IMG/VR virus record: IMGVR_UViG_3300005253_000053
Reading direction: 5' to 3' (one strand)
Source: a virus
Lineage: Duplodnaviria; Heunggongvirae; Uroviricota; Caudoviricetes
Length of the DNA stretch: 64,000 nt
A program made the position numbers and the translations under genes. Under the pieces are notes generated by a model. The model was not told where the DNA came from and did not search any database. It saw only the letters and a list, made by a program, of their open reading frames with translations. Below, one piece after another: positions 12,900 through 20,081 of the stretch (within the stretch, counting starts at the first letter, position 1; the number at the start of each line of letters is the position of its first letter).

Positions 12900-14036
12900 C
12901 TACTTTGTGGCTTCCACTACGGCAGACAGATTCCGCCGCGTGTGGTACCGACTGTTGTCCGGAAGCTGGCCCGTCTCTGAGAAACCGGCCTCCCGGCAAA
13001 GATGACTGATCGATTCGTAGTCGTACCCGTACTGGTGGCCATACTCACCCATGCCCACGAGGTTGTCCATGAACTTGTCCGCCAGTGTCGGACCCTTCCA
13101 GATCGGGTTCTCCGATGGCTCGTAACGCTGGTCCCACCACTCCTCATCGCCCGCCAAATACTTCTCGGCCGCGAGTCGCAGATCCGGGATCGAGGCCACC
13201 AGCTTTGCGCCCGGCTTGAGGACCCGGTAGATCGACTTGACCACCTTGAGCCCGTCCACCCGAGGGATGTGCTCCAGCATGTGCTGGCAGACCGCGAAGT
13301 CCACGGAGTTGTCTCCGAACGGGAGACCGTCCTTCACGACATCGCGCAGGATGTACCTACTGCGATTCCGCGTCACACCTGAAGCGGGCCAGATATCCAG
13401 TCCAGTGAATCCCTCATAGCGGCTGCCCCGGCCACCGCATCCTACGTCGATCATCAGATCCATGCTCATGTCCTGGATGCGAGCAAACCCCATGGACTGC
13501 ACGATTCCTGCCTCCACGGTTCGCTTGTGCGGAATGACGAAGTTATGCCACGCAGACCACACGTCCTCAAAGACTGAGCGGCAGTCGTGAGCCGCGATCA
13601 TCCCCCCAGACGCGACTTTGGGAAGCCACGCTTGGAAGTCCTTCAGCGGGTTGCCTCTCTCGTGGTTACCGTCGATGAAGATCAACGCGGCGGACTTCAC
13701 CTTGGCAACTGCGTCTACGGACGGAAGTCGGTGAACAGTAAAGTCTTTGCCGCGCTCCAGGCCGCAGGCGTCCATGTTGTCCAGAAAATCGTTGAAGACC
13801 TCATAGCCACTTTGCTCACCAAAGGGCTTGGACCCGTCGATCCAAGGATCGACGCAGATCAGATGACGGCCCAATTCCTGACACACGACACCGAACTGAG
13901 ACGCCGAACGTCCCTTGTAGCAACCAACCTCGACGACAGGGCCGTCAACACGAAGGCGGCGGACCCAGGCTTCCAACTGGGTCATCTGGGGCTCGGCCAT
14001 GTGCCCAGGAACATCTTCGGGTTTCAGCGTGGCCAT
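12900..14036 (-). CDS. tandem class I SAM-dependent methyltransferase (two methyltransferase domains fused)
   Basis: N-terminal VVEVGCYKGRSA (O-methyltransferase family 3-like) and C-terminal IDVGCGGRGS...LPFGDNSVDFAVCQHMLEHIP (Methyltransf_11-like). Confidence 0.7.
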   Translation of the reverse strand: MATLKPEDVPGHMAEPQMTQLEAWVRRLRVDGPVVEVGCYKGRSASQFGVVCQELGRHLICVDPWIDGSKPFGEQSGYEVFNDFLDNMDACGLERGKDFTVHRLPSVDAVAKVKSAALIFIDGNHERGNPLKDFQAWLPKVASGGMIAAHDCRSVFEDVWSAWHNFVIPHKRTVEAGIVQSMGFARIQDMSMDLMIDVGCGGRGSRYEGFTGLDIWPASGVTRNRSRYILRDVVKDGLPFGDNSVDFAVCQHMLEHIPRVDGLKVVKSIYRVLKPGAKLVASIPDLRLAAEKYLAGDEEWWDQRYEPSENPIWKGPTLADKFMDNLVGMGEYGHQYGYDYESISHLCREAGFSETGQLPDNSRYHTRRNLSAVVEATK

Positions 14037-14707
14037 AGATTTAGTGCCTCATACAGTCGAGTCAGTCGAGGTAAACTGGCGATTAGATCCTTGATGTAGC
14101 GAATTGTATCTGGGTGCCAGTGGTCGGGTCCAGGCAGTTGTCGCCGGTCACGAGTTGCGTTCCGATCAATGTCCCAGTTGATACGGCCCACATCGATTTC
14201 CACACCGAGGTGCTTTGCGAGCTTCTGTAGTCCTTCAGGAGTCGTGTATTCTGTGAAACTCCAGTGCGTGAACTGTAATCCCAACTGGTGCGCCAAAGAG
14301 ACCGACGCCTCCAAGTCACCAAAAAGCGCAGCAGCGCAGCGACGTAATTGGGAGTTCAACAGGAACTCACGTGTACTCCGCAGCGACTCTTTCGGACACC
14401 CGGAACGCAGGCAGTCCAGCGGGTTACGCCATACAAAGTTCCATTGAGGATGAACGGCCTCATCAATCTCCCGCATAAACCCACGTGCAGAGTTGTTAGA
14501 CATGCCCACGACAGGTGCGTCAAGCTGTACCCAACCCTGAAACCCTTGTGGCCAGAAGCACTCTATCGGTGTGTTGTCACCTCGACCAGGACTCCAGGTG
14601 AATGGCTCGTGGACGACAATGGCGTTCTCACCCTGATTGAGCATATTTGCCAGGAACATCGTTCCTGATCGACCCGCCCCAGTTAGTACAAAATATCGCT
14701 TGTTCAT
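14024..14707 (-). CDS. sulfotransferase family protein
   Basis: Start at MNKRYFVLTGAGRSGTMFLANML: P-loop-like PAPS-binding 5'-PSB motif of sulfotransferases; start chosen by hand within the track ORF. Confidence 0.55.
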   Translation of the reverse strand: MNKRYFVLTGAGRSGTMFLANMLNQGENAIVVHEPFTWSPGRGDNTPIECFWPQGFQGWVQLDAPVVGMSNNSARGFMREIDEAVHPQWNFVWRNPLDCLRSGCPKESLRSTREFLLNSQLRRCAAALFGDLEASVSLAHQLGLQFTHWSFTEYTTPEGLQKLAKHLGVEIDVGRINWDIDRNATRDRRQLPGPDHWHPDTIRYIKDLIASLPRLTRLYEALNLWPR

Positions 14708-17673: not shown

Positions 17674-20081
17674 CAGGGCCTGTACCTCGCCCGGCCTCGG
17701 CGAGCCGCCGGGTGGTCCGGATCGGGTTTGTCAGGGCGTACGCCCTGATTCGGCTTTGCAGCGCGAGACCAGCCGCCAAACAGGCCTGACTCGCCTTCCG
17801 TAGAAGCACCTGTGGCGCGACCAAGTGTCTGAGTCGCAGGCTCGTCCGCTGCGAGAGCGAGGAAGTGGTCCAGGGTTTCTTTCGCCCCGGCCACATGCTT
17901 ATCGTTCAGGTCCACCGCGTGCTCGCGGCAGAGAGTCTTGAGCTTCTCCAGGTCGAACGTGGGCGCGGAGATCTCTTGCAGTTTCTCCGCCACCTGTTCG
18001 GCCGAGTTCGGATCGACCCACAGGTGCCGTTGGAGAAACTCGTCTTTGTAGGCGTGGGCAGGCGTCGTAGACGGACCGATCACCGGCACACCCAAGAGCA
18101 GCGCCTCAATCGAGGCGTACGAAAAGGTCTCTGAGTGGCTCAGATGGACCATGGCGCTGCACGTCTGAAGCATCCGGCGCACGGCCTTGGAGTCGTGGAG
18201 GTTGAACGACGCGAACGCGCACATCAGATGCGTCAGAAAAGCGTCGATCTCTTTGTCCCGAAGAAGCCACTGCGAGATATTCGCGTGCAAGCCTGCGCGA
18301 GCAATTCCGGCAAGGGCCACCAAGAGATTCTTGCGAGGGTGCGTCGGTCCAAGAACCGCCACCATGAACTTCGGCGGCAGATACGGTTCCACACGGGGAG
18401 CGACCTGTTCCAGCGGCGGGCGAAGCGCTTCACCTCCGACCGTGCACGGCAGCCACCGAAACCGGTCGGCCGGATACTGCGTCAGCAAGTGCTGGTAGGT
18501 CGCGGCGTCGTCCTCATAGGAGGTAACCATACCACCTATCCGGTCGGCGCGGACCAGAGCCGTCAGGTCGATCCATTCTTGAATCTCTTTCGGCTCGAAC
18601 GCCATCTGCGAGAGGTGCGAGCACCAGGAAACCACCGTACGCTTCGGGAAGCTCTTCGCGATCCTTTGGGCCATCGGCTGCTTGAGCGAGCCGCTGAACA
18701 AAAACAAGTCGTAGTCCGCCGTGTCTACGCGTTGAATCGAATGGATCGTGGTGTAACCGCAGCCGGTGACCTTGGCGAGGCTCCGGCACATGCTCTGTAC
18801 ACCCGGACCTCCGGCCGAGACCACGAGCACCCGGCGACGCGGCAGGACCTCCAGGATCTTTGGAACCACGTCTTCCATGCGATGTTGGTGCGCGTAGGGC
18901 GTCTCGGCATGGAACCCGTCCGTGAACGCATCCCAGTCATCCTGGACGTTTCCGCACAGGATATTGTCCAGGGCGTCTTCCCAGATCTTGATAGGCGCAG
19001 TCTGCGGGACGACCACGCCACCTGGACCCAGCATGCTGTTTTCCGGCGGGTCGTACAGCCCTTCCCGCCGACGCTCCTCGTGGTACTCCCGATCCGGAAC
19101 CATCGCCCGGTCGAGCACGATGTTCGGCAGGTTGCCGTTGTCCGTGCAGAGCACCGGGCAACCGGACAGGCGAGCCTCGACAGCCACGCGGCTGAACGTC
19201 TCGGCCGTCAGCGTCCCGATGAACACGCACTTGGCCTTGGCGTAGACCCCGGCCATGTCGTCTGTCCACCTGAGAACCTCGACGTTCGGCCTGCGGACGC
19301 AGGCAGCGATCTCGTTCTTGTGGTGAGTCCGCTCGTACTCGGTACTCAGGACAGCGAACTTCTCGTCCTGGAAGTGGTCAGCCAGAGCCAGGAACCGGCG
19401 CAGACCCTTGAGCGCCTGCACCGAGGTCATCAAGACGTACTCCCGCTCCAGGTAATGAGGCGCATCCTTGGCGATAGATCGCGGAGAGTGGCCCGGGAAC
19501 GCGATCATGGGTTTGCGCCCCAGAGTCCGTTCCATGACGTTGGCCGTGAAGTAGCTGTTGGCGATCAGGATCTGGTGATTCGCCACGGCCTGGACGCCTT
19601 CCTCATTGGAGTCGGCTTCCGCAGGCACGCCGTAGCGTACGAGATCATTGAACTGACACCTGGATAGCTCGCCTCCGTGAAGCTGCTGGTCCTCCTTGTG
19701 GACGTGCAGGAAGTCCAGCCAGAACTGAACGTAGTGAACCGACGGAATGTGGAGGGCCTCGGCGACGTGGGCCGACTGAACGGCCGTGCCGGAGCCTCGC
19801 GACATCAGGATGTCCGGCCGGATCTTGACGGCGGCCTCGCGCAGGCCGCCCTCGGCAATCTTCATCGGCGTCACGCCGTCCGGCAGTTTGACCTTGCCGT
19901 CGTAGTGGCCACGATGGTAGACGCAGAAAACCTCGCAGCCGTGCTTGACGAAAGCCTGGGCGAAGTCCTCGCCACTAAGCTCGCCGCCTCCCAGACCGTG
20001 TCCGAACGACTTGGAAAACAGCATAACGACGGGCTTCTCCCGTCTTGGGGGCATAACGGGACTAACGAGGATACTGTCCAT
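17673..20081 (-). CDS. multi-domain glycosyltransferase (802 aa; GT-B/GT4-like repeats)
   Basis: N-terminal FSKSFGHGLGGGE and further internal repeats of the GT-B fold pattern; size implies two or three GT modules. Confidence 0.55.
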   Translation of the reverse strand: MDSILVSPVMPPRREKPVVMLFSKSFGHGLGGGELSGEDFAQAFVKHGCEVFCVYHRGHYDGKVKLPDGVTPMKIAEGGLREAAVKIRPDILMSRGSGTAVQSAHVAEALHIPSVHYVQFWLDFLHVHKEDQQLHGGELSRCQFNDLVRYGVPAEADSNEEGVQAVANHQILIANSYFTANVMERTLGRKPMIAFPGHSPRSIAKDAPHYLEREYVLMTSVQALKGLRRFLALADHFQDEKFAVLSTEYERTHHKNEIAACVRRPNVEVLRWTDDMAGVYAKAKCVFIGTLTAETFSRVAVEARLSGCPVLCTDNGNLPNIVLDRAMVPDREYHEERRREGLYDPPENSMLGPGGVVVPQTAPIKIWEDALDNILCGNVQDDWDAFTDGFHAETPYAHQHRMEDVVPKILEVLPRRRVLVVSAGGPGVQSMCRSLAKVTGCGYTTIHSIQRVDTADYDLFLFSGSLKQPMAQRIAKSFPKRTVVSWCSHLSQMAFEPKEIQEWIDLTALVRADRIGGMVTSYEDDAATYQHLLTQYPADRFRWLPCTVGGEALRPPLEQVAPRVEPYLPPKFMVAVLGPTHPRKNLLVALAGIARAGLHANISQWLLRDKEIDAFLTHLMCAFASFNLHDSKAVRRMLQTCSAMVHLSHSETFSYASIEALLLGVPVIGPSTTPAHAYKDEFLQRHLWVDPNSAEQVAEKLQEISAPTFDLEKLKTLCREHAVDLNDKHVAGAKETLDHFLALAADEPATQTLGRATGASTEGESGLFGGWSRAAKPNQGVRPDKPDPDHPAARRGRARYRP

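Follow-up and report, generated by a model that had tools for sequence, protein, structure and literature searches.

The DNA analysed here, hereafter the window, is a 64-kb stretch (64,000 nucleotides) of the virus record IMGVR_UViG_3300005253_000053, and its region 12900-20081 holds seven consecutive open reading frames (ORFs) of the minus strand, g1 to g7, with operon-like packing (Table 1). Six of these genes (g1-g5 and g7) make up a glycan set that is broken by one unrelated gene, g6. The six enzymes comprise three glycosyltransferase (GT) modules, four methyltransferase domains and one sulfotransferase, and we regard it as very probable that their genes form a single glycan-building and tailoring unit. 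We further propose, with moderate confidence in the reading as a whole, that this is a phage-encoded virion-glycosylation island, the product of which would be a methylated and sulfated glycan carried on the viral particle.

The genes of the island are tightly joined, with junctions of -13 nt (g1/g2), -4 nt (g2/g3), -4 nt (g3/g4), 0 nt (g4/g5), +16 nt (g5/g6) and -1 nt (g6/g7). ATGA overlaps occur at both ends of g3, and the sequence GGAGGG stands directly 5′ of the ATG of g5. The starts of g2 and g5 and the frame of g6 were fixed by codon-position GC content, start context (ATG overlaps or a ribosome-binding site) and homolog lengths; the same measures led us to discard the long versions of g2 and g5 with TTG/GTG starts. 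A 68-aa ORF at 17381-17587, considered as the zinc-ribbon gene, was rejected as lying in the wrong frame. Seven consecutive co-directional genes had been proposed for this region in a first-pass annotation made from the nucleotide sequence alone, and the minus-strand ORFs with their tight junctions agree with it. That annotation also placed the cluster immediately downstream of the portal gene, which is incorrect: the order in the window is terL-portal-g8-island, so that g8, together with an 80-nt gap between g7 and g8, separates the island from the portal.

The gene g7 is the conserved core of the island. Its product matched the Pfam families Glycos_transf_1 (E 1.7e-16, 60.7 bits against a cutoff of 26.4, best stretch at residues 631-704) and Glyco_trans_1_4 (E 3.1e-15, 57.1 bits against a cutoff of 27, best stretch at residues 233-324). 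Each family matched in two stretches, indicating two GT-B C-terminal modules, and g7 also matched PHROG 2170 'glycosyltransferase' (1.6e-12). Enzymes of about 930 aa encoded beside capsid genes in the phage contigs L004, L005 and L014 are 27-29% identical to g7, while P0009, a partial match with 26% identity, was set aside for its ordinary bacterial context. The second GT gene, g5, belongs to Glyco_trans_1_2 (PF13524; residues 184-324, E 4.9e-20, 72.4 bits against a cutoff of 25) and has counterparts with 31-34% identity in eight contigs of HK97-type phages. The island had been credited with two glycosyltransferases, which is right for the genes; the GT modules are three, as g7 has two. When g2, g5, g7 and a Sulfotransfer_2 gene of the related contig L011 were searched with tblastn against 50,697 phage records, no match was obtained.

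Three genes of the island encode S-adenosylmethionine (SAM) methyltransferases. In the product of g1, Methyltransf_24 covers residues 35-152 (E 7.5e-18) and Methyltransf_11 covers residues 197-280 (E 1.6e-11). The product of g3 matched Methyltransf_11 (1.9e-8) and Methyltransf_25 (3.6e-7), and that of g4 matched Methyltransf_11 (3.5e-16) and Methyltransf_23 (6.9e-15). These Pfam results agree with the initial calls of a tandem-domain methyltransferase, two more class I methyltransferases, a CgeB-like GT and an 802-aa multi-module GT. It had been anticipated that the methyltransferases might turn out to be DNA or RNA enzymes, but the DNA-methyltransferase motif (D/N/S)PP(Y/F/W/H) occurs in none of g1, g3 and g4. 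We rejected this identity on the absence of the motif, and a match to PHROG 2675 'DNA methyltransferase' fits only the generic Methyltransf_24 domain within a profile of 599 positions. Judged by their sequences, g1, g3 and g4 are class I methyltransferases of the small-molecule type. In L004 and L015-L018, the GT pair is accompanied by g4 homologs with 34-39% identity, and g4 is presumed to be a sugar O-methyltransferase. The neighbouring genes and the TylF and FkbM enzymes found in relatives point to sugar as the methyl acceptor.

The gene g2 alone had no match in Pfam, NCBIfam, PHROGs or the PDB sequences, and a word-indexed homolog search returned a single match with 88% identity. An exhaustive HMMER search of 1.84 billion representative proteins yielded a family of 44 representatives, members of which are seen in phage-like contigs. 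Sulfotransfer_3 was matched by 19 of 35 family members (best 8.6e-9) and Sulfotransfer_1 by 9 of 35, and the family profile matched TPST1/2, SgdX2, SULT7A1 and CurM-ST in the PDB. Sulfotransferases of this kind use 3′-phosphoadenosine 5′-phosphosulfate (PAPS), and the alignment of 35 members contains a conserved GRxGT loop resembling the 5′-phosphosulfate-binding (5′-PSB) loop (G10-x-G-R13-x-G-T16). It also contains a motif resembling the 3′-phosphate-binding (3′-PB) motif, R94-x-P96-x5-S102, in which R94 does not vary and each of P96 and S102 is shared by at least 90% of members. These motifs align with GFGRTGT and RDPVQWHRS of SgdX2, whereas PRSGTT of TPST aligns with the 5′-PSB loop only. 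H33 is near-invariant across the family, and the dyad H33-E34 aligns with a Glu-Glu pair of TPST, the aligned Glu of which we take to be the catalytic one, as in TPST2.

The AlphaFold (AF2) model of g2 has a predicted local distance difference test score (pLDDT) of 89.9 and a predicted template modelling score (pTM) of 0.88, and displays the sulfotransferase alpha/beta fold with a central parallel sheet. In a Foldseek comparison with the PDB, ranks 1-42 were all sulfotransferases (best 3rnl, E 1.5e-5), and nucleotide kinases entered the list only from rank 43. The Sulfotransfer_3 matches of family members, the PAPS-binding motifs and the modelled fold thus uphold the early call of a sulfotransferase, and on the strength of its model g2 is a minimal, divergent member of the PAPS-sulfotransferase superfamily. 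Its composition is that of an outlier (GC 0.534 and GC3 0.548, against about 0.60 and 0.70-0.87 in neighbouring genes), suggesting that the sulfotransferase was acquired recently by horizontal transfer.

Judging from the sequences around its members, the g2 family is tied to PAPS and to glycans by gene context. In the window, g2 is followed by the Methyltransf_24 domain of g1; in L008, a family member (P0016) is fused to a Methyltransf_24 domain. The fusion gene sits just after the tape-measure gene, beside a second copy of the g2 family and a GT4+GT9 enzyme, and L008 also has nearby a gene like the C-terminal part of g1 (a weak BLAST match, without a Pfam match). In L009, a family member adjoins a gene with CTP_transf_like and APS_kinase domains and a polysaccharide pyruvyl transferase gene. 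A search for related loci with the sulfotransferase alignment failed, as it offers no conserved stretch. Taken together, the glycan-building and tailoring set, the small-molecule type of the methyltransferases, the fold and motifs of the sulfotransferase and the fusions and neighbours of its family favour the pathway for a methylated, sulfated glycan that had been suggested for this cluster.

The remaining gene, g6, had been counted as a zinc-ribbon member of the pathway. The zinc ribbon is present in the 193-aa ORF, but the protein has a RusA-like fold and is not a glycan gene. Its AF2 model (pLDDT 76.8) had Escherichia coli RusA (1q8r, chain 1q8r_B) as the best Foldseek match (E 1.9e-3, prob 1.00, TMt 0.68, root-mean-square deviation 3.4 Å), with RusA chains at ranks 1, 2, 4, 6 and 15 of the list. 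No match to RusA was found in Pfam or with a sequence profile against the PDB, where the g6-family profile matched only the Rpo12 zinc ribbon. The family (14 proteins) is strongly conserved; D134, D148, D158 and D159 are invariant in it, and the residue equated by eye with D72 of RusA varies. The gene is present in every relative, whatever its glycan genes, and adjoins packaging genes throughout the clade. This distribution, that of a core gene of the phage lineage, and the RusA-like fold place g6 outside the glycan pathway, and the model suggests that it is probably a packaging-side Holliday-junction resolvase with an N-terminal zinc ribbon. In L024, a distant relative, a gene with weak similarity to RuvC (E 3.9e-4) lies two genes past the portal, at a place analogous to that of g6; this looks like a non-orthologous replacement. 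Searches for related loci with the g6 alignment in metagenome and viral collections gave nothing usable, and neither did the portal alignment in metagenomes.

Comparison with relatives revealed that the locus is a hypervariable glycan island in one clade, with a conserved GT core and exchangeable tailoring enzymes. The closest relative, L003 (portal identity 79%), keeps g7 (85%), g6 (80%), g5 (46%) and the C-terminal methyltransferase of g1 as a separate gene (57%). It has no g4, g3, g2 or N-terminal domain of g1, and instead carries a different sulfotransferase-like gene (GCGRSGT...RNPVHVIRS; a weak Sulfotransfer_3 match, E 0.003) and two further genes. Its flanks are those of the window: g8 (54%) and the portal precede the island, and seven genes with 49-79% identity follow it; a 69-aa gene in the place of the membrane protein that borders the island of the window is 49% identical to it. 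L002, a fragment that does not cover the portal and that, like L009, stems from Chinese coastal samples, displays the g3-g2-g1 arrangement of the window. A 75-residue segment at the C-terminus of g3 (156-230) shares 59% identity with the truncated gene that opens L002, g3 has no counterpart in L003, and the N-terminal half of g1 occurs in the window and L002 only. The conserved core of the island is g7, g5 and the methyltransferase of the g1 C-terminal type.

More remote members of the clade have other contents at the same place. L011 (portal identity 59%) has the portal and g8, then a 758-aa GT2 enzyme, an FkbM methyltransferase, a Sulfotransfer_2 gene, a 242-aa gene, a homolog of SQD1 (UDP-sulfoquinovose synthase) and another Sulfotransfer_2 gene, followed by g6 and conserved genes. 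The SQD1 homolog (8284-9420, plus strand) is full-length, matches PDB 1qrr at 3.4e-101 and lies between the two Sulfotransfer_2 genes. In L012, which does not cover the portal, a fused MptE-like/TylF sugar O-methyltransferase stands just before g6, and in L001 (portal identity 54%) the portal and g8 are followed by a 728-aa GT2 enzyme at the contig end. Sulfur-adding functions recur at the locus in three non-orthologous forms, and the enzymes concerned are three types of sulfotransferase and the SQD1 homolog. Homologs of g8 follow the portal in L003 (54%), L011 (28%) and L001 (20%), and the large terminase is 76% identical to that of L003 over 130 aa (a partial gene at the contig end) and 50% identical to that of L011 over 512 aa. 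At 1277 aa, the large terminase of L001 (6175-10008, plus strand) is longer than the 685-aa protein of the window. The alignment of the two falls into three separate blocks, a sign that the L001 protein contains two insertions, which look like inteins.

The core of the cassette also occurs in phages unrelated to this clade. In seven HK97-type contigs from several lineages (L004, L005, L014-L017 and L021), a g7-like GT, methyltransferases like g4 and like the C-terminal domain of g1, and a g5-like GT have the major capsid gene on one side and the head-tail connector gene on the other. The gene order is the same as in the window, with identities of 26-29% for g7, 36-39% for g4, 27% for the g1 C-terminal domain and 32-34% for g5. 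To our knowledge, this capsid-adjacent cassette of uncultured HK97-type phages, with its GT, methyltransferase and CgeB-like genes, has not been described. It differs from the island of the window in that the large GT (about 930 aa) has an extra N-terminal GT2 module, in that it has no sulfotransferase, Methyltransf_24 domain or g3, and in its site between capsid and connector instead of after the portal. The first gene after the cassette in L004 (14754-15047, plus strand) and the first after the island in the window both encode a small single-pass membrane protein with a coiled-coil tail; the two have no sequence similarity, and their position may be a coincidence.

That the product is destined for the particle is argued most strongly by the recurrence of the core in head modules of unrelated phages. 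The virion had been named among the possible targets of the cluster, and it is by this context only that we favour it. The exchange of tailoring enzymes among relatives suggests diversifying selection on a surface-exposed structure. No transmembrane (TM) segment was found in any of the six enzymes, which are all soluble, and no membrane protein of the Wzx, Wzy or Gtr type was found in the island, a combination that fits direct modification of protein in the cytoplasm.

Based on these findings, we postulate that the island would be transcribed together with the terminase and portal genes, giving six soluble cytoplasmic enzymes. Using nucleotide sugars of the host, the GTs g7 and g5 may then assemble a short oligosaccharide at exposed residues in the capsid, decoration or tail proteins of the virion. 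The four SAM methyltransferase domains (both domains of g1, g3 and g4) would O-methylate sugar hydroxyls, and g2 would move sulfate from host PAPS onto the glycan. The predicted product is an anionic, partly methyl-capped coat on the particle. In this scheme, what we infer is that a virion protein is the acceptor, that the methyl and sulfate groups are added to sugar, that PAPS is the donor and that the genes are co-transcribed. A broader proposal, which we put forward tentatively, is that a large marine-sediment phage lineage coats its particles with virus-made anionic glycans. The glycans would bear O-sulfate and O-methyl groups here and sulfoquinovose and sulfate groups in relatives, and close relatives would exchange tailoring enzymes in the way of O-antigen genes.

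Several observations weigh against glycosylation of the virion by this island. Promoter and terminator scans of the region gave nothing above the shuffled expectation, leaving the co-transcription of the genes presumptive. No major capsid gene was found in the window, so that the island adjoins terminase and portal instead of a capsid gene; the analysis covers 64 kb of the genome, and the other ~160 kb lie outside it. The acceptor among the virion proteins is putative. No APS kinase, sulfate adenylyltransferase or other PAPS-synthesis gene was found in the window, and for want of an APS kinase host PAPS is assumed as the donor. Since protein-tyrosine sulfotransferases are among the closest structural matches of g2, it may sulfate protein instead of sugar. 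In phages with a portal identity of 30-36%, homologs of the island genes were not found near the portal, and Pfam detected no glycan gene downstream of the portal in L024; as these more distant relatives do without it, the island is dispensable for this type of virion. Finally, tblastn against the 50,697 phage records, in which actinophages are assumed to be included, detected no homology of g2, g5 and g7 to mycobacteriophage enzymes.

An alternative that we consider unlikely is that the island remodels the host envelope, altering lipopolysaccharide (LPS)/O-antigen, capsule, S-layer or exopolysaccharide in the infected cell. Superinfection would thereby be blocked, progeny kept from re-adsorbing to lysed cells, or the cell surface altered. 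Serotype conversion is the classical use of phage glycan genes (reviewed in PMC12619734), and the hypervariability of the locus fits an arms race at the host surface equally well. The nearest cellular relatives of g7 and g5 are of the envelope-glycan type (CapJ, 3.4e-5; weak NCBIfam matches to EpsE, TuaC and BshA), and relatives of g5 occur near GT4 genes in Hyphomicrobiales genomes. However, serotype-converting glycosylation of the Gtr/Oac type employs a membrane flippase, a bactoprenol GT or an acyltransferase in a temperate phage, and Pfam and TM scans found none of these in the island. GtrA/B, Wzx, Wzy and an initiating phosphoglycosyl transferase are equally absent from it, and all its enzymes are soluble. 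No integrase was seen in the window, and a fixed site in the head module of unrelated phages is unexpected for a host-conversion moron.

It is improbable, in our estimate, that the enzymes serve auxiliary metabolism, making a soluble glycoside or glycolipid or changing nucleotide-sugar or sulfur pools with no role in the particle. Metagenomic surveys list viral sulfotransferases, GTs and a UDP-sulfoquinovose synthase among auxiliary metabolic genes (PMC10829341; PMC7785012), and the nearest relatives of g4 in the PDB and NCBIfam are small-molecule and lipid methyltransferases (UbiG, phosphatidylethanolamine N-methyltransferase). Nevertheless, three GT modules and five tailoring domains exceed the needs of pool manipulation, and the conserved structural-module site, along with the exchange of tailoring enzymes between close relatives, favours a structural, surface-exposed product.

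Still less credible is a role in DNA hypermodification, in which the GTs would glycosylate hydroxymethylated phage bases in the manner of T4 and of the gene clusters described by Pyle et al., the sugars then being methylated or sulfated. Phage GT-B enzymes related to those of LPS and teichoic acid do glycosylate 5-hydroxymethylcytosine, and some of their clusters have terminase or structural genes close by (bioRxiv 10.1101/2023.12.21.572611). Likewise, the island adjoins packaging genes and a resolvase, and g7 has a borderline GT4-conflict match (26.5 bits against a cutoff of 26). According to a secondary source, which cites Iyer et al. 2013, phages have been predicted to possess sulfotransferase-based systems for nucleotide modification. 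Intact hypermodification pathways are usually clustered (bioRxiv 10.1101/2023.12.21.572611), whereas Pfam detected no hydroxymethylase of the thymidylate-synthase (ThyS) type, 5mYOX, TET/JBP or base kinase in about 65 scanned ORFs of the window. Moreover, the methyltransferases are without DNA-methyltransferase motifs, the SQD1, TylF, FkbM and Sulfotransfer_2 enzymes of relatives are a typical glycan-tailoring set, and the HK97-type cassette sits between capsid and connector genes.

Separate protein modifications, with g2 as a protein-tyrosine sulfotransferase and some methyltransferases acting on virion or host proteins independently of the GTs, are the least probable explanation: TPST1 and TPST2 are among the best matches of the g2 profile and model, the H33-E34 dyad aligns with the Glu-Glu of TPST, and methylation of a phage tail protein by a host enzyme is the subject of PMC13445384, but the similarity of g2 to TPST is mainly confined to the PAPS-binding N-terminal part, its family is fused to or adjoins Methyltransf_24 domains and GTs, and relatives have carbohydrate-type Sulfotransfer_2 enzymes and the SQD1 sulfo-sugar synthase at the same locus.

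Table 1 Features of the glycan island and of other parts of the window
Feature	Position	Strand	Description
Apyc1-like protein	1-786	-	Metallo-beta-lactamase fold; anti-Pycsar protein Apyc1, 6.5e-24
FMN reductase-like protein	8214-9254	-	NADPH-dependent FMN reductase-like; FMN_red 4.4e-9
SWIM-like protein	11444-12007	-	187 aa; CxC...CxH SWIM-like motif; phrog_1722 'tail protein', 1.7e-10
Poly-Gln protein	12004-12570	-	188 aa; poly-Gln tract (QQQQQQQQ)
Small membrane protein	12634-12888	-	Single-pass, coiled-coil tail; KD19 maximum 2.53; first conserved gene past the island, right border
g1	12900-14036	-	378 aa; fused Methyltransf_24 (N-terminal) and Methyltransf_11 (C-terminal)
g2	14024-14707	-	227 aa; ATG start at 14707; divergent PAPS-type sulfotransferase (predicted)
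g3	14704-15408	-	234 aa; class I SAM methyltransferase
g4	15405-16076	-	223 aa; class I SAM methyltransferase
g5	16077-17075	-	332 aa; ATG start at 17075; CgeB-like glycosyltransferase (Glyco_trans_1_2)
g6	17092-17673	-	193 aa; zinc ribbon (two CxxC motifs) and RusA-like domain
g7	17673-20081	-	802 aa; two GT-B (GT4-type) modules
g8	20162-20866	-	234 aa; between portal and island; left border
Portal, T4 gp20 type	20870-22570	-	Portal_T4 3.4e-41; phrog_213 6.5e-35
Large terminase subunit	22563-24620	-	685 aa; phrog_2 2.5e-10
Major Vault Protein homolog	30611-33388	-	925 aa; MVP_shoulder 5.8e-28, Vault_3 1e-8, Band_7 5e-5
tRNA block 1	33491-39379	-	
tRNA block 2	45958-46034	-	Suppressor tRNA, anticodon CTA (reads UAG)
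tRNA block 3	51084-54254	-	
Odd tRNA	52523-52603	-	Two-base anticodon call

The window comes from a phage of a poorly sampled lineage. The 802-aa product of g7 is 100% identical to LCGC14_0165350 from a marine sediment metagenome, the contig of which measures 224,854 bp. No nucleotide match to the region 12900-20081 was found by megablast among the 50,697 phage records, which are from GenBank, and no portal of a deposited phage exceeds 26% identity to that of the window. We conclude that the phage is uncultured and of jumbo size. Nearly all genes of the window are on the minus strand. Besides the packaging genes, it encodes SSB, a family A DNA polymerase, a Pif1 helicase, RecA and an SbcCD-like nuclease pair, formed by an SbcC-like protein (phrog_77, 4.5e-85) and an adjacent 378-aa gene that we take to be its SbcD partner. 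The product of g8 had no match in Pfam, PHROG or NCBIfam searches. The genes of the poly-Gln and SWIM-like proteins are among the first conserved ones past the island, and the FMN reductase-like protein is 76% identical to its counterpart in L003.

Other genes of the window are of separate interest. The homolog of the eukaryotic-type Major Vault Protein has no PHROG match, and a vault-shell protein is unusual for a phage genome. The Apyc1-like protein would be a counter-defence gene degrading cyclic-nucleotide signals, and one of the window proteins scanned with Pfam carries Intein_splicing and LAGLIDADG_3 domains. There are 36 tRNA genes in the three blocks. The suppressor tRNA raised the idea of TAG recoding, which we found unsupported: TAG terminates 17 of 64 called genes, making global recoding unlikely.

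If our interpretation is correct, the island would encode the first virus-encoded sulfated glycan on a bacteriophage particle, and, with the HK97-type cassette, virion glycosylation would be widespread in environmental phages well beyond actinophages. So far, this trait has been demonstrated essentially only in a few mycobacteriophages, where it alters antibody recognition; the island and the HK97-type cassette suggest that it is broader and has been built from unrelated enzymes. The first-pass annotation considered phage-encoded sulfation with multiple O-methylations to be new, which stands in part. We found no description of a sulfated glycan on a phage particle, or of this cassette, in the searchable literature. 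Sulfotransferase-fold annotations exist for the cultured phages S-SCSM1 (Synechococcus), P-SSM7 (Prochlorococcus) and FoX4 (Xanthomonas) and for giant viruses, so that the class of gene is not new to viruses, and an O-methyltransferase and GTs after the portal have been described in the mycobacteriophage Corndog (PMC4351075). What is new here are the non-homologous enzymes, sulfation combined with multiple methylations and the organisation as a hypervariable island. The recurrence of sulfur-adding enzymes at one hypervariable locus provides the testable idea that some phages bear a sugar coat that is charged and sulfated, with possible effects on adsorption to particles or to sulfated marine polysaccharides, on host range, or on the evasion of receptors and defences. 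The island also offers a compact enzyme set for glyco-engineering, with a double GT4 enzyme, a CgeB-like GT, four methyltransferases and a minimal sulfotransferase of 227 aa.

Parts of the island have counterparts in known systems. Like the PAPS-dependent sulfotransferases of the Sulfotransfer_1/3 clan (TPST, SULT7A1, 3rnl of A. acidocaldarius, StaL/Teg14), g2 has the fold, the GRSGT-type 5′-PSB loop and the R94/S102 residues of the 3′-PB motif; unlike them, it is small, falls alone below every Pfam and NCBIfam threshold and belongs to a tiny family. SQD1/Agl3 serves the synthesis of sulfolipid and, in Sulfolobus, of protein N-glycans. Its full-length homolog in the island of L011 indicates a second route to an anionic, sulfur-bearing sugar, whereas the window itself has no such gene and would use O-sulfation by g2. 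A Mu-like virus with a UDP-sulfoquinovose synthase gene was noted earlier (PMC7785012). The Glyco_trans_1_2/CgeB family has been associated with the decoration of a proteinaceous shell (PMC13436329). CgeB of Bacillus subtilis, which acts in the maturation of the spore-crust glycan, belongs to the same Pfam family as g5, a likeness at the family level only and in a wholly different context. Phage DNA sugar-hypermodification clusters (the T4 alpha/beta-GT; Pyle et al.) likewise employ GT-B enzymes of envelope-glycan origin, sometimes near terminase or structural genes, but they are defined by an adjacent ThyS-type hydroxymethylase, or by 5mYOX/TET with a cytosine methyltransferase, none of which was found in the window.

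The closest parallel is found in the virion-glycosylation genes of mycobacteriophages (Cluster O phage Corndog; Che8, Myrna), where an O-methyltransferase and several GTs lie within the head module after the portal, the same type of location. In Corndog, gp35-38 (an O-methyltransferase, two glycosyltransferases and a GlcNAc-transferase) are encoded in the interval from portal to protease; infected cells produce them but virions do not contain them, and modification of the capsid has been proposed as their role (PMC4351075). Glycans on capsid and tail-tube subunits of mycobacteriophages were later reported by Freeman et al. 2023 (Che8, Myrna), as cited in PMC12619734. Corndog has one methyltransferase, against four domains and a sulfotransferase in the window, where the island is hypervariable. 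Furthermore, the window belongs to a 225-kb phage of the T4-portal type, the host of which is probably not an actinobacterium. By analogy, the island most resembles the Corndog-like virion-glycosylation cassettes, apparently assembled from non-homologous enzymes and with sulfation added.

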